DNA from: Patellaria atrata CBS 101060
Taxonomy: Eukaryota
Assembly (NCBI GenBank): GCA_010093705.1
Contig: MU006096.1
Coordinates: 1,324,004-1,388,003, forward strand
Length of the DNA: 64,000 nucleotides
Direction: 5' to 3'
Under the pieces are notes generated by a model that saw only the letters and a list, made by a program, of their open reading frames with translations, searched no databases and was not told where the DNA came from. How positions within the stretch are numbered: the first letter of the stretch is position 1; each line of letters begins with the position of its first letter. Shown piece after piece: positions 55,611-64,000 of the stretch. Made by a program: the position numbers and the translations under genes.

Positions 55611-56881
55611 TCAGTCATTGTAATTAACCAGTCCGGCGCCATCCTTATTCACCGGAGGGAGACGTTCCTGCACCCGATACTCCTCCTCCTGCGACTTACC
55701 ATCTGGGTCGAATGTAGGAATCTCACCGTGACAGCAGACACGTACTGCATGACGACGATGGCCCTCAAAACCGTACGAAGCTGAGTGATTCTACGATGGT
55801 AAGTATGAAGAATATATTAAGATCGGTACACTTACGCAAACACGGTTGTCCCAGAATGCTACATCATTCTTATTCCACTTGAAAGTCACCTGCAACTCAT
55901 GGGTAGTAGCAACAAGCTCAGTGAGAAGGTTGATGATCATATCGCTCTCCAGTTTCGGTACACCAACAATCTTAGTGACAAAGCCCGGGTTGAAGAAGAT
56001 GGATTTCCAGCCAGTGACGGGGTGCGTACGAATTAGTGGATGCTTCGTAACGATAGGTTCTCGTCGGACAGTTCGTCCCAGTTGGCGTGAGCCGTCAGCT
56101 TGCATTTGAGCAGAATGCAGTGCAGACAACTTTTCTAGATATTGCTGCATATGTGGCGAAAGGAGATCGTACGCCGCATACTGGGAAGACCAAAGAGTAT
56201 CACCTCCACCTCCCCTTGGTGGGCCGGTAAGGAGTTTCAGGGAGGTATATGAGGGTGGCTGTATCTCATAAGATACCTACATATGTAAGTACAAATACCA
56301 ACTGCCGACAAATTTGTACTCACATCTGAATGCCAGAGAAATGAAGGCTTGAATATAGCGCGCATGTCCTGGGATTTCTCATTCGCAAACACGACATGTA
56401 CATCCTCTAGACCTTCGCGTTGAGGTACGCAAGTAGTAGCATGCTTGTGTAACTTCCCAAAATATGTTCCTAGTTCGCGTTGCTCTCCGATGCCAAAGTC
56501 GGTTTGGTTCCTGAAGAATACTACGCCACGAATTGCAATGAGTCGAGCTAAGTCATCCTTTTGAGCATCCGTAAGCTGAGATAGATGAACGCCATGGATC
56601 TCCGTTCCAACTTTAGGATTGTAATCGAAAACGTCTGTAGCTGATGCAAGAAGGTTCCGGAACTTAGGATCACCGTTCAAACCCCTGTCGTGGTATGGCA
56701 CCTCAGTTAATGGTGGCCATTTGACTTCCGGACAACGTGGCCGTAGATCTTCATATTCGTAGTCCTCGTACGTTTTGGTCTCCGTTTGTCCTGGCTCATA
56801 ATTGAGAACTCTTTTCTTAGACGATATTACTTGAGCTGGAAGAGCGGTGGTTTCTTCTGGGAGGAGAATAGCAGGAGCCAT
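55611..56881 (-). CDS. TauD/TfdA-family Fe(II)/2-oxoglutarate dioxygenase (sulfonate dioxygenase-like). Exons 56881-56324, 56276-55836, 55790-55611
   Basis: GTEIHGV, RGVVFFRNQ, WHSDVSYE (HxD), GGDTLW, HPLIRTHPVTGWK, WDNRVCNHSA (distal His), RHAVR. Confidence 0.94.
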
Positions 56882-58511
56882 GGTGCACGAGTATGCAAGT
56901 AAAGGCTACAAGTATCAAGAGGATCGGGAAAACCTTAAAGCTTCGTAGTATGGTAAGATGTGGAGGGAGAAAAAGCAACGGGGGTAAGAAGGAATCACAT
57001 ATAAATACGCAAAAAGAGTGATGCTCGGGAGGATCACCGATTCACACCACTGATGATATGGATTTATTCTCACACTTACCTCTTGGAGCAATCAATCCCC
57101 ATTCTGTGTCCTTATGAATACCAGGTAACTCCACAATTCGCAATCGCACTATCTCAGCACCTCATTAGAGTAACTGCTATCACTATGACCTCCCCACATC
57201 GCACTAGCGAGGTTTATGGTAGGTCTACGAAGCAGGAATTCTAGGCGGATTCAAAATCCAGAAGATAAAGCAATCCCTTGCTCCTTAGAAATCATAACAA
57301 GTTACAGCTCTCCCCTCCTATAATGTCCAGTAACTTTGCCGATTTGTGCCAGAAACATGGGTCTCATATGGAGATAAGGAGCCTTCATCTGACAAATCAG
57401 AAAATGGGTTTAGACATGGTGTTTAATCCGATTGCTTAAGACGAATATGTCGATGGATACTCAAGGCATCTGGAGAATTCAGGACGACGTTGGATCTAGG
57501 ATAAGGAGAGAATAATACTAAGCCCGTTTTGGATAGTGCGGACATGCTTCAACCAATCATGCAACCAACTAGGAGAGATGGCCTGTTCGGGTGCGCTTTA
57601 AAGATGCGTTGTGTGAGTCTGACTGAACAGCACGCAATCCATCATCAGAATTACCTCTTTCTTACTCCTCTATACTATTAATTGTTCCACGCACCACCAC
57701 TCTGTCGAGGTTATTATGCACCTGGGCATTTCGATCCCATTGCGTATGTCTCCTCTGGCGGGAATCAATTACCGATTCCCCACATTTAGAACAGGAAGCA
57801 CAACAGGTTGTAATCTACTCAGCGGTCACTGTAATATGATCTGAATCGATCCTCAAGACCTATAGCTTAGATCCGGCGAATAATATGGCAATAGATGCAT
57901 TGCAATTCTGTACATTTTAGTAGAAGGGTTCCATAGTTCCAGCTCTAGAGGGCTAGCTCCAGTCTCCCTATTCTCCTATTCTTCTACTGGGAATTCAATC
58001 TGTCGTCGAGGAAAGGTGACATAAAGCACCTACACAGACTATAATTTCACAATCTGATAGCTTCAAATAACCAGATTTTGCAAGTCAACATGTTGGTTCC
58101 CCGCGTATCTCGTATGATGTAACAGTGCTCCATAAAATTTCCCTAGTGGACGATATAACTCGACTAAACCATGCTGATTAATGGTTCTTAAAGGTGCGGA
58201 AATTGCCATATAGCTCTCATAGGTTGATTCTATGAGTTGAAAGTATGAAGTACCGTTAGGATATTGAATTAAACAAGCCTATATCTTCGATAAATTATAC
58301 CCTTTGTGGAAGTGTTGTCACGTTTGAAACCACTTTATCACTTAAACATACGAATAGAACATAGTAGACGTAGGGTCGCAATTTTGATTATAGTTCGATA
58401 TTTAATATCTCTATGCCGCATATGCGTATCTATAATTTACCATGAGGAACGGGTGCCGTACCAATACTCCAATATTGCCGTTTCGGACCAGGCTCCATTT
58501 TAGTCACACAC

Positions 58512-61500
58512 CTACTTCCGCAACTTGAGCATGACATAAGGAATTTCAACATCTTCCTCTGTCTTATCCTCCGCAGTGATCTCGAAAATGACGTTCTTCT
58601 GGTGCTCCGGGATTGGTTTCTTACTGATAGTCTCGACAAGATCGCTCAGCCTACAAGCGTATTAGTATCGGTTCGGTAACAAGAGTCTCAATTGACTTAC
58701 TTTAGGGGCAGTCGATCTTTGACTTTCGAAGGAGCGTAGAAGCTAGCATATAGCAAACTTACTCCCGAGCTTACCATCGTGATGTCGAGACCTTTCGACT
58801 TGAAATCGTCTAGGAATTCCTGTAGTGTGTAATTCTCCACCTCGAAACGGTCCCAGAGCTTATCAATAGTAATCTCTCCGTTAGCACCTTGATACGTGCC
58901 CTTTGGACTTGCTATCGGTTCGCTAAAGCCAAAGAATGGAAGTGCAAGGTTGATAAACCCGTTCTTGTATTGCTCAATGTCGTCATTGCCCGCTATGATC
59001 TTGTAAAGCTCTAAGTTAACAAGCCCAGTGACAAGAGAAGTAGTGGTTGCAATGGCAGGAATGATCTTGCCAGCGATGAACTTCGTCTTGTGCCTATCAG
59101 CAGTAGCAATCTTGTAATTTTCAGCTCGAAGGTTGCTGGCAGCGGTAATGAAATCGATGTGGTGGTTTGTGTCGTCATCCTTTTCAAACTCGACAGGCTC
59201 CAATCTGTATCCAGCAAGGGATTTGGGAGGTGGTAACTGATCAGCAATACGCTGCAATTCAGTATTGCTAGCTGTCTGCTGTGCGTTGGGATCTGGATCC
59301 GTATCATTGGCTTGAATCTTAACACCGGGATCAGGCTTGAAATCTGGTATGATCATATCCTCGAGAACCTTGAGATACTGTTCTTCGGTAGCATTATTGG
59401 AATTTATGTTGTAGTTGAAGGCATGTAAGTTGGCTGCCGCTACAATGAAACCGACATGAGTAGGGTTTGAGGGGTCAAATTTAGCTGGATCAGGCGCTCG
59501 CTTAGGTCCCGACCAGAACGGTTGTCCGCTAGACGTCGTTGAATCTTTGGGGAAGTTGTGCAACAGTTGTTGGACACTGTTAGTAAAGTGCTTCTCGAAC
59601 TGGTTGCGGGCCCAGATTATACAATCATCAAAGGTCAGAGGTTTCTCGGTGACAAGATAATCGCGAAGCGTTTCAAGTGTTTGCTTCTCGTTGCCACTCT
59701 GCTTAAGAGCGCTTCCGAGGTAGTTGGGTTGTGTCAGATAAAGGTTGACGACCTCTGGGGGTTGAACAAATAGTCCCTCGAATAAATCCTTCGCCCATGC
59801 TATGGTATGGTCAATTTTATTAGGGAAGTGTTTGAGTGTGCAAATGGGAATGGACTTCTCCGGTGGGTCTTGAGAGCTCGAATATGACTCCGTGATCCTT
59901 GGTAGGACTACCTGGACATTTCCTTTTGTTCCTAATGTACCACTGTCGATCAGGGGCTTGAGGAAGAACACACACCTGCGGTCAACATAGGTCCTAGCTT
60001 CAACATTATCCAGCGCATTGGTCACACCATCGAGTTCCCCCCAAAACTCTTCGTTGAAAATATGCTCTGTCTCCGGGCCGACTCGGTCTCTCAGTGTGAC
60101 GACCTTGCCTTTTAGATCAGGGTTCATCGCTAAGACAGCCTCTGCTGCGCAATCGCTCTTGAACTTCCCCACGTCCTTGGATCTGAAAAGGAACTGTCGG
60201 TTGAGATTACTCTTTTCAATTTGGTCCATGTCGGTGACAGTGATCTTGCCTTCAGGACCTGTTGCCAAACCCATTAACGCCCAGTTCTTGAGCATCTCGC
60301 ATCCAATGGCGCCTGCGCCCACGAGGAATTGCTTTACGTTGGCTAATCTTGACTGATATTCCTTACCGAAAACTGCGATCTGTCCATCATACCGGCTTCC
60401 TTGAGGGGCGCAGGATTCCTCCGTCCTCTCAGTTGTTGGGAGTGATTCTAATGAGTCGAAGTATAACCATTGAACGATGGGGTGGAACTTTCCAGATACG
60501 GATTTGAGCACTTCCTGTGCAGCCAGACCGCCAAAGAAAGCGTTCATAGGTGCAATGTCCCCTCGTGCTTGGTAGCTAAGTTCTTTGATTAACTTCTCAT
60601 CGAGTTCTACCTTCTCTTCTCCTCGGTTCGCCAGGCCTCGCGCGAGTTGAAATACCTCTGCCGCATCCGCTTCGTTGTGTGGTTTTGGATATTCGCCGCT
60701 ATGTTGCTCAAAAAATGCGTGTAGAGCTTGGAAACCAATATGGAGCTGCTGGGGCCTATCGAATTTTGCGAAGTCGGACATTAGCAATTCAGGCTTCTTG
60801 AGTTGCACGCTCAGGGGCTCAAAGTCGATGAACTTGGGCATCTTAACTTGGGTATAGATACCGCCGCTCTTATATTCCCCGAATTTGGAAACGTCGCCGA
60901 TTGAGAAAGCATAGGGCCCTTTAACGGTGATCTTCATCGGGGGTGCGTCATTCAACCCTTCCATACCTTCCACTTCTTTGAAAGTAACAAAGTCGCCGTC
61001 CTCCAAACCATGCCTTACGTCATCAAGTGCTGAGACTAGACCATCAGGCTCAATAGCTGCCACAATACCGCTGAGAACATTTTCTCCGGTGGGATCCCCA
61101 CAGGTGAAATTCTTTCCAAAGTCCGTAAAGATTGAGCCGAATAAGCCGAATGTATCTGTTATGACTACATATATTCCATTGCTGTGGCAATAGTCCGATA
61201 TAGCAAGTTGTTGCCTGAGTGGGGTGTCCGTAAGTACTACTACTTGGTATTGCTTTAACTGGTCAAGGTCACCGATGATGTCTCCTTCGTGAAGTTTAAC
61301 CGGAGTGTACGGGTTTAATTCTGACACTCGAGGTACCGTTACCTCAGCTCGTGCCTTACCAACATCTTCAGGGTGTAGGAAGAATTGCGAGGAGAGATCG
61401 GATATTGTGGCAGGCTTAGGGTCGTACAGTGTGAGGGATTTCACTCCGGCGAGGGCAATGTTCTTCGCGATTTCGACTCCTAGACCTCGAATACCGACAA

Positions 61501-61812
61501 TAAGGACATTCGACGAGCCCATACGCTTCATAGCCTCATGACCTAGAACATATAGCTGTCTGCTGTATAAAGATTCATCAATCTCGCCACGATCGTCCTT
61601 TAGCTGCTCGACCGCAGCAGCGGGGCTGTCAACTTGCATCGTGGTATCCTAGACAGTTCTATTAGTGATCTATAAGTTTCAGTTTCCAATAGTGAGGTTA
61701 GAGCAATGTAGAAATTCGTAGATAAAGATTTGGTATTATGAAAGCTCTTTGAATGACATAGTGGGGGATTTTATGGGAAGTCAGATCAGGCGCTGGTATC
61801 ACGTACAGTCAT
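58512..61812 (-). CDS. UBA1: Ubiquitin-activating enzyme E1. Exons 61812-61807, 61648-58701, 58650-58512
   Basis: [32 protein letters not shown], catalytic Cys in [22 protein letters not shown] tail. A 6-nt coding first exon ATGACT|GTACGT splices to TAG|GATACC. Confidence 0.97.
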
Positions 61813-63233
61813 GACTTTCTTGCTTGGACTGGCGGAGCCCTCGCCTGAATGCTGTCTCTTCCCCAGCTTGACTACGTCTGAGAAGCCAACCTGTACTATT
61901 CAACGTGGCGATGCTGTTGTTGCCTTAAGCGCCGAGCACTTAGGTGCTATTTTGGAGCAAACACGACGTCTTAGCACAGAGAAAAGCACAGTAAAAACTC
62001 AAGGTATGTAATACTGTAAATTTGAGTGAGGTGATCGAGCAACTGTAGATTAAGTGTTCAAGTTTCTAACTTGCTGAGACGGGAATATTGTTGAAGCCGC
62101 GAATTACAATAATATTATGCGGTGATGCCATCCGCACTAAAGCCGAACTTCAACCGAAGCAATCCATCCAGGAAGGCATCCCTCAGCAGTCTCACGGAAT
62201 ATACGGAAGGCACAATCATGCGATTTATATCACATTGACCGAATTTCTAATGTCTTCATGACTTTAATTTCGAGCATCGGTCCATATAACTTTAGGTGAA
62301 GACTTCTTGCTAACTACATCCATCACTGGATCCAATAGATGTTCATACAACACTAAGAAGGCTTATGAGATCCATATTTTCGAAGATTGTATGATAAATA
62401 TCTAGTAGCAGTCTTGAGTGCTAAACTCCAAGGATTTCCCCGTTGTAGAGATCATTGCGTAGTGTCGGAGTACAGTCGCTTTTATCGGAGGCCTCTGGGT
62501 AGAGTTTGTCGAGCAGTTGATATCGTGCGAACGAATCTCAACATCAGCATTATCTCAGCCGTGCAAATAATACAAAGTCAGTTGATGCTTCGGACCGAAC
62601 AGCCAGTCAGCAGTGTACCTTAGTCGTTGAGTAACCGTACAGGGGCCGAAGAATCCCAACCGAGATAACGAGAAGGGTGAAACAATGTAGGGAACATCAC
62701 ACAACTGCAGAAAATTATGTAGCTATTGAAAGTTATAGTCCCCAAAGGTAGAAAATGTGATTAAGTAACGCTATGCGATTATTGAATGGCAACTAACAAA
62801 GGCCTAACTTGGAACGACAAGGGTGAGAGTAAGGTCCCCATATGCTAGAGTTCACCCAGCGTATAATTCTTCCATAAGGTACTCGTTCGTACAAGAGACA
62901 AACAATGATTATGAAGTATAGGTTAAGGTTGTGAAGCAAGAGGAGGTAAGACCCGGACGGAGGTTCGAATTAGGTTGGCTTCATCGTGGCTGTGGCGGCG
63001 TCAGATCTTGTGATTAAGTAAGCTAAGCTCTGACGTCGGTTCGGGTTCGATTGACGCTTCCACATTGATCAAGGGGAACAATGAAAGTACCTTACAGTAC
63101 CGCGACTCGCCTCAGAGTATAAGGGAGAATGTGATTTTCAGGTTGTCTCATATCAGTTCTATGAGTATGAGCGAACTAATAACAGCTACGGTACCTTACA
63201 GAATCTAGGTGGAAATCCTAGAAACTAGCCGAA

Positions 63234-64000
63234 ATGGACTCGTCGGTACAACTTCCCGAGACGGAGAAAGACCAAATTAGCATACCAAACCGACCTGAAA
63301 ATGTCAGATCACAGTCTCACGAAAGCTCCCTGAATGAACTCCCCATAGATGAAACCGAGGACATCGTAACGGAGAAGAGAGATTGTAAGACAAATGCACC
63401 AGGAGGTTTGGCGGTGGAGGAGAAGACGTGGGATGACAAGCAGTCAAGTGATCATAGGAGTATTTCGGAGAGCGTTTCTGTACAGCTCGAAGGTGACGAT
63501 GAAGAGCCTCCTATTCCTCAGTCATTCCAAAGAACCAACAGTCCTCCTGTCATGCAAAGAAATAAGAATGCGGCGTACGGTAAAGTAGGGGATGATGGCA
63601 TTCACAAGATGCATCGATTCTCGCTATACGAAACAAACACCCGTTTCTACTTGATAGGCGGTGATCTCATGGATAGGCATTTCAGGGTTTTGAAGATTGA
63701 TAGAACATCGGCCCCTGGTCAGTTAAATATCTTTGAAGACGACATCGTCTATGATAAGCTGGAGATGAACCAACTGCTAAATGCAATCGACGATGGCAAT
63801 AAACACAACGGGGGTCTTAAACTTAAATGTAGCTCTTGGGGTATCCTCGGGTTCATTCGATTCACTGAGGCTTATTATATGATACTAATAACTAAGAAAG
63901 CTCATGTGGCTATGATTGGGGGTCATTATATCTATCAAGTTGACGGAACTGAACTTGTCCCGATCACCACTGGAGCTAGTTCTCGCTTCATGAGAGATCG
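63234..64000 (+). CDS. FIG4: Polyphosphoinositide phosphatase Fig4 (Sac domain), N-terminal part; runs off the window
   Basis: Open frame from ATG 63234: IHKMHRFSLYETNTRFYLIGGD..FRVLKIDRT..WGILGFIRFTEAYYMILITKK..IGGHYIYQVDGTEL. Confidence 0.93.
   Translation, partial: MDSSVQLPETEKDQISIPNRPENVRSQSHESSLNELPIDETEDIVTEKRDCKTNAPGGLAVEEKTWDDKQSSDHRSISESVSVQLEGDDEEPPIPQSFQRTNSPPVMQRNKNAAYGKVGDDGIHKMHRFSLYETNTRFYLIGGDLMDRHFRVLKIDRTSAPGQLNIFEDDIVYDKLEMNQLLNAIDDGNKHNGGLKLKCSSWGILGFIRFTEAYYMILITKKAHVAMIGGHYIYQVDGTELVPITTGASSRFMRD

Follow-up and report, generated by a model that had tools for sequence, protein, structure and literature searches.

UBA1, the ubiquitin E1, is the entry point of ubiquitination, and in mammals one E1 gene gives two proteins from two in-frame AUGs lying 40 codons apart (PMC4596250, PMC12336205). 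As described in PMC4596250, the longer form, UBA1a, carries 40 extra residues with phosphorylated serines and a nuclear localisation signal (NLS) in its first 11 residues, and the shorter UBA1b is cytoplasmic; in human, loss of the second start codon, that of the cytoplasmic isoform, drives VEXAS syndrome according to PMC12336205. Among fungi, conserved CUG, AUU and ACG starts are reported as used in Neurospora cpc-1, giving in vivo less than 1% of the reporter activity of the main AUG (PMC5487733). The account in PMC7049704 describes fungal dual-localised aminoacyl-tRNA synthetases in which weak AUG and near-cognate codons swap between lineages, and gives predicted nucleus/cytoplasm dual-start proteins, for AUG starts, as not enriched. 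For the leaky start of Ustilago Pgd1 the corresponding figure is about 2% (PMC7214817).

The locus compared here with these systems lies in a window, the whole stretch of 64,000 nt analysed, from Patellaria atrata CBS 101060, the minus strand of which encodes UBA1. A Pfam search placed ThiF, FCCH, the four-helix bundle (4HB), SCCH and UFD all above the cut-off, and the P. atrata database protein P0001 is 100% identical over the UBA1 query. This protein starts MT-DTTM and the extension described below is absent from it. Exon 1 terminates with ATG ACT at 61807, the ATG itself being 61812-61810 (minus strand), and intron 1 joins it in frame to exon 2; the matching junction is spliced in one relative (L072) when compared with another (L027). 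Another ATG of this frame, likewise preceded by A at -3 (ACG ATG C), lies at 61636-61638 (minus strand), codon 5 of annotated UBA1, and as the matching Met is the annotated start in many relatives a third UBA1 N-terminus from this ATG is possible. The neighbouring genes are a divergent SacI-domain gene (63222-64000, plus strand), about 1.35 kb above the CUG, and downstream of UBA1 a TauD-family dioxygenase gene (55791-56905, minus strand). In several public models of Eurotiomycetes and Sordariomycetes (P0260-P0262, P0277, P0383 and others) UBA1 is fused to a glutathione S-transferase (GST) domain; these are probably merged neighbouring genes.

Table 1. Features of the UBA1 locus in the window, ordered from the leader to the last exon.
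Feature	Position	Strand	Basis
Small leader hairpin	61923..61944	-	not significant in folded 154-nt region, z 0.73
In-frame TGA closing the frame, 12 codons above CUG	61900..61902	-	translation
TACAG, acceptor-like site of a putative upstream exon	61891..61895	-	sequence; branch-site match absent nearby
CUG, candidate near-cognate start, GTC AAG CTG G	61864..61866	-	sequence; CTG in 43/59 listed loci
18-codon N-terminal extension (M)GKRQHSGEGSASPSKKV	61813..61866	-	translation; homologues in 83/91 Pezizomycotina-like loci listed
KR-x11-KK, bipartite-NLS-like	61816..61860	-	spacer 10-13 in 57/59 loci; strict consensus unmet in window
S-P-S-K, full CDK consensus adjoining second basic cluster	61819..61830	-	12/59 listed loci
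Annotated AUG (GTC ATG A) plus codon 2, where exon 1 ends	61807..61812	-	sequence; P0001 start MT-DTTM
Intron 1, 158 nt, phase 0, GTACGT...ACTAAT...TAG	61649..61806	-	splice-site analysis
UBA1 exon 2 (ThiF, FCCH, 4HB, SCCH, start of UFD)	58701..61648	-	Pfam; exon end read from sequence
UBA1 last exon with stop codon	58512..58650	-	by eye

The original prediction was that UBA1 has an in-frame extension which can be initiated at a CUG and carries a bipartite NLS and a CDK site, and the CTG at 61866, its GTC AAG CTG G context (A at -3, G at +4), the open frame and the lack of an upstream in-frame ATG are all present as described. Between the TGA at 61902-61900 and the CTG no in-frame ATG occurs on the minus strand of the window, the closest ATG in any frame being 62131, 265 nt above the CTG, and the locus thus has the make-up of a near-cognate extension: a codon in frame, open to the annotated AUG and without an in-frame AUG upstream. 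Both strands of the window together contain 107 A-N-N-CTG-G sites, and when all were inspected the motif together with an in-frame Met followed only one; as this chance pattern was written after seeing the UBA1 case the count shows rarity only, and the conservation data, rather than the chance count, are the real test of the extension.

Metagenome contigs were scanned with a conserved UBA1 peptide pattern, which gave at least 117 UBA1 loci; the sampling left out Basidiomycota and Taphrinomycotina. Using the translation and the best named-protein match, the listed loci were sorted by hand into 27 others and 90 that are Pezizomycotina-like, or 91 once the window is counted. A permissive pattern that asks for two basic clusters matches 83 of the 91 Pezizomycotina-like loci listed, a count that includes L112, where the match was wrong and the in-frame motif was placed by hand, and the eight loci lacking a match have merely 46-300 nt of upstream DNA. 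None of the 27 other eukaryote loci listed matches the pattern (14 of them have at least 400 nt upstream); in the three yeast-like loci L017, L048 and L107 the motif is absent. As background, the pattern matches 7 among 41 reverse strands and, among 31 stretches lying further upstream, 8; it excludes stops by design, and a stop-free motif carries no evidential weight. The yeast-like L048 has a KKR-containing stretch about 145-50 nt above the EIDES codons, before what could be a short intron, its donor being weak, through which it would be in frame with UBA1, and this may be chance.

After five loci with less than 45 nt above the motif had been dropped and loci 90% alike collapsed, 59 distinct loci remained, the window included. 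By best match, which makes the class labels approximate, 26 are Dothideomycete-, 10 Sordariomycete-, 8 Leotiomycete-, 7 Eurotiomycete-, 5 Lecanoromycete- and 3 Xylona/Candelina-like, and a quick tree recovers the classes and places L049 outside all of them. The loci share ancestry, so that the counts below are not independent trials; the within-locus controls have identical ancestry.

The site of the CUG is situated 1-3 codons above the KR of the motif (4 in L033, where it was set by hand), and the codon found there in the 59 listed loci is CTG in 43, TTG in 5, ATG in 4, GTG in 1 and ACG in 1, with none of these in the remaining 5. Every Leu codon at the site is CTG or TTG (48/48), as compared to 39 of 118 codons for two invariant Leu residues of the enzyme body and 19 of 49 where the Leu falls within the motif. 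Among 46 gap-free loci the third base at the site is always G (0 bits) and the first base varies (0.83 bits), while the third bases of four flanking codons vary by 0.99-1.57 bits; a fixed third base together with a variable first base is the reverse of an ordinary codon. When pairs of loci from different classes were compared the Leu codon was identical in 648 of 810, the next codon, for Gly, in 267 of 683 and the codons of the two body Leu residues in 273 and 401 of 1197. The context is equally well kept, the 43 CTG loci having A at -3 in 42, G at +4 in 42, G at -6 in 41 and C at -4 in 36, and both codon and start context are consequently conserved beyond what the amino acid constrains. The comparison of upstream regions across Pezizomycotina that the original prediction had proposed came out in its favour, with CUG, frame and basic motif all conserved.

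Above the site the reading frame is unprotected and need not stay open: of 57 loci, 15 have an in-frame stop no more than 60 nt away, and the other two frames give 21 and 20. ATGs are rare in the leader, with 2 in 5,400 nt within 100 nt of the site and 143 in 6,800 nt at 400-600 nt. The loci with ATG at the site all have C at -3 (4/4), a weak context, and at the protein level a Met stands at the start of the extension in named Cladosporium, Zasmidium, Lecanosticta and Zymoseptoria proteins. These exceptions to CTG, together with the upstream ATT described below, fit leaky scanning. Folding of the stretch immediately after the start in 54 loci gave only a weak signal for stable structure (mean z -0.63, with 11 loci below -1.5). 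Two forms could alternatively arise from alternative transcription starts, one above the CUG and one between CUG and AUG, and such starts are described between the start codons of some fungal synthetases (PMC7049704); selection for a leaky upstream codon, as in the four weak-context AUGs, would be needed only if one mRNA serves both forms, and the chance that transcription starts contribute more than leaky scanning appears slim.

Should the CTG be an internal Leu codon, the extension beginning instead at an ordinary AUG on an unannotated exon, it would not stay CTG/TTG, swap with ATG, GTG or ACG, or keep a start context. An upstream ATG exon spliced into the TACAG at about 61891 was what the original prediction had named as speaking against itself, and on paper the join can be made, as ATG 62219 with the donor-like GTGAGA at 62195 joins TACAG 61891 in frame, but a branch-site match is absent near this TACAG in the window. 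In-frame ATGs occur 9 codons above the CTG in L081 (weak context) and at 43 codons in L058, and an upstream Met is the annotated start of several database proteins; the annotated upstream parts are, judged by eye, dissimilar between genera, and in-frame stops stand only 4-7 codons above the site in L011, L016, L021, L059 and L095. The sequence L072 equals the near-identical L027 minus exactly its intron and is probably a transcript; its leader, reaching to about 150 nt above the CTG, is colinear, unspliced and ATG-free, which for that relative only would answer both the upstream exon and the objection of a low transcription start. Taken together this makes an upstream AUG exon very improbable.

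That the extension is coding is indicated by its relation to the enzyme. When splice sites were picked blind to frame, 41 of the 44 loci with a call had the motif joined in frame to the enzyme, the remaining outcomes being 3 out of frame, 3 loci without a call and 12 contiguous without an intron. The AUG right after the motif is lost in 7 of the 59 loci (L016, L067, L074, L090, L110, L112 and L013) with the motif still in frame and a later in-frame Met kept; in L016, L067, L074 and L090 exon 1 is devoid of AUG and could be coding only via a near-cognate start. The extension is also present in named proteins from Aspergillus, Penicillium, Cyphellophora, Psora, Drepanopeziza, Lachnellula, Botryosphaeria, Paraphaeosphaeria and Aureobasidium, one Aureobasidium model beginning at the extension Leu itself. 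The proteins P0096, P0115, P0276, P0286 and P0332 have a predicted Met shortly before the second basic cluster only, and these starts are probably gene-caller picks inside a longer extension. A conserved non-coding leader element, a DNA or RNA motif merely resembling a peptide, would account for the highly conserved nucleotides around the CTG and for the hairpin found further up in some classes, but not for K and R codons of the motif with fixed first and second positions and variable third positions, or for a frame that continues through the intron junction also in loci that have lost the exon-1 AUG, and we give it hardly any chance of being the right explanation. The claim of a conserved, basic and near-cognate-started UBA1 extension missed by annotation is thus strongly supported by sequence comparison, in five Pezizomycotina classes and one basal lineage.

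When analysing the leader above the CUG position in relatives a second candidate start appeared, one that the original prediction had missed. All five loci without a near-cognate codon at the site contain, 12-19 codons above it, an ATT that is in frame and has A at -3. Considering all loci, an ATT with A at -3 is found in frame within 60 nt upstream in 26 of 56, 4-19 codons above the CUG position, and in the other frames in 2 and 1; this bias suggests two candidate starts in many species. For the remaining near-cognate codons of the leader the three frames are not clearly different (17, 9 and 19 loci). The Penicillium-like and Chaetothyriales-like loci retain AUU alone and the window retains CUG alone, its leader having no in-frame ATT and an ATC at 61912 that is out of frame. 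After the candidate ATT start there is in many cases a brief conserved segment, for example I-x-P-H-A-D.

A conserved hairpin, CUUGC...GCAAG with a variable loop, was identified some 10-45 nt upstream of this ATT in 12 loci chosen by eye (L004, L006, L007, L008, L020, L029, L033, L034, L035, L044, L079 and L108), which are of Eurotiomycete-, Lecanoromycete- and Candelina-like types. In the alignment 89.5% of cells are paired, 4 of 9 pairs show two-sided change and the covariation score was reached by 0 of 500 shuffles, a count that leans towards the hairpin since the structure was derived from the same 12 sequences. The CUUGC...GCAAG sequence may instead be a palindromic DNA site. In the window, folding of the 154-nt region did not exceed that of shuffled sequence (z 0.73).

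A classical bipartite NLS consists of a first cluster of two basic residues, a linker of 10-12 and a second cluster with at least three basic residues in five or the sequence K[KR]x?[KR]. The first cluster and linker are found in the window, KR with a linker of 11, and the spacing is 10-13 in 57 of 59 loci; the second cluster of the window consists of KK only (KK-V-M) and follows neither rule. The rule of two basic residues, spacer and three basic of five holds for 18 of the 59 listed loci and KR-x9-13-K[KR]x?[KR] for 8, the window not among them in either case. The bipartite NLS of the original prediction is therefore kept as regards the KR and its 11-residue linker and given up as regards the second cluster, and since the window motif fails both strict rules its putative NLS activity rests on resemblance. 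The two N-terminal basic clusters 10-13 residues apart nevertheless suggest a signal for importin-alpha. As for the predicted CDK site, S-P-S-K is present in the window, but the full consensus [ST]-P-x-[KR] occurs in only 12 of 59 listed loci (10 of them Dothideomycete-like) and is absent in 47, which makes it at most a lineage-specific addition instead of a clade-wide feature.

The unmet strict rules, in the window and in most loci, would also suit an extension that is translated from the near-cognate start yet does not act (or not only) as an import signal, forming instead a module for binding or stability under phospho-regulation, in which case UBA1 would reach the nucleus by other means. 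A Ser 3-4 residues past KR, nearly as conserved as the basic residues (41/46 loci), and P-x-[KR]-[KR] in 38 of 59 listed loci agree with such a module. The position of the two spaced basic clusters at the extreme N-terminus in 57 of 59 loci, and the NLS which the mammalian long isoform has at the corresponding N-terminal place (PMC4596250), argue against it, and we consider a role other than import improbable. By analogy nuclear targeting is the likely function of the extension, and phospho-regulation of it is doubtful.

The model that we propose, and consider likely as a whole, is that a leaky near-cognate start gives an NLS-bearing UBA1 besides the AUG form, both proteins being made from a single mRNA by leaky scanning. 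A minority of the scanning ribosomes would initiate at the CUG, aided by its optimal context, and produce a form 18 residues longer; the others would scan on to the AUG at 61812 and produce annotated UBA1. Judging from the codon data, initiation at a near-cognate upstream start is very probable. The long form, with KR-x11-KK first, would most likely be imported by importin-alpha and constitute the nuclear E1 supply, and the AUG form would be mostly cytoplasmic, as proposed for the pair by likeness to mammalian UBA1a and UBA1b. The isoform ratio is one that we infer, and as the near-cognate starts of cpc-1 are given as below 1% (PMC5487733) the long UBA1 form could be scarce. What is conserved would be a deliberately inefficient upstream start, old in Pezizomycotina, realised mostly as CUG, in some cases as UUG, GUG or ACG, in Cladosporium-like lineages as a weak-context AUG and in many as an AUU further up, which accompanies or replaces the CUG.

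Compared with mammalian UBA1a/UBA1b, the likeness is one of features: one E1 gene, two in-frame starts, a longer form with an N-terminal NLS, putative in the fungus, and potentially phosphorylated serines, and a shorter form that is cytoplasmic in mammals and would be so here (PMC4596250, PMC12336205). The fungal gene differs in having a near-cognate upstream start (CUG and/or AUU) in place of an AUG, an extension of 18 codons, two basic clusters and a lineage-limited CDK consensus. With cpc-1 of Neurospora crassa and Pezizomycotina, as described in PMC5487733, it shares several conserved in-frame near-cognate codons in good context, the subphylum and an interchange of CUG and UUG; in cpc-1 these belong to a leader with regulatory uORFs and a long extension, whereas the UBA1 leader is ATG-free and the extension short and targeting-like. 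The fungal synthetases (PMC7049704) and Ustilago Pgd1 (PMC7214817) likewise have a targeting signal that follows a leaky start and precedes an AUG further down, but their signals are mitochondrial or peroxisomal while that of UBA1 appears to be nuclear. The class of mechanism is thus known in fungi from these accounts (PMC5487733, PMC7049704, PMC7214817) and the two-isoform E1 in mammals. In the literature searched, which covered few subscription journals, no report of a near-cognate start in fungal UBA1 was found. Wei et al. 2013 (J Biol Chem 288:9549) reportedly described conserved near-cognate extensions in Neurospora, and UBA1 may be among them.

If the proposed model is true, a nuclear isoform is missing from most UBA1 gene models of filamentous ascomycetes, and tagged or overexpression constructs made from the ORF only would mislocalise UBA1. 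A case of nuclear targeting would then join the fungal examples of leaky starts, which in the papers cited here are mitochondrial or peroxisomal, and a single codon (CUG to CUC or AUG) would serve as a handle separating nuclear from cytoplasmic E1 in Neurospora or Aspergillus nidulans. A more far-reaching and tentative possibility, which we hold to be somewhat less probable than its opposite, is that the entire nuclear E1 pool of filamentous ascomycetes depends on staggered non-AUG starts, an AUU behind the conserved hairpin and then the CUG, with the nuclear-to-cytoplasmic E1 ratio set by start-codon stringency via eIF1/eIF5 levels, stress or cell cycle. In that case translation fidelity would be tied directly to nuclear ubiquitination, and these fungi would offer, by convergence and in a form open to genetics, a parallel to the balance of UBA1a and UBA1b, which VEXAS syndrome disturbs.
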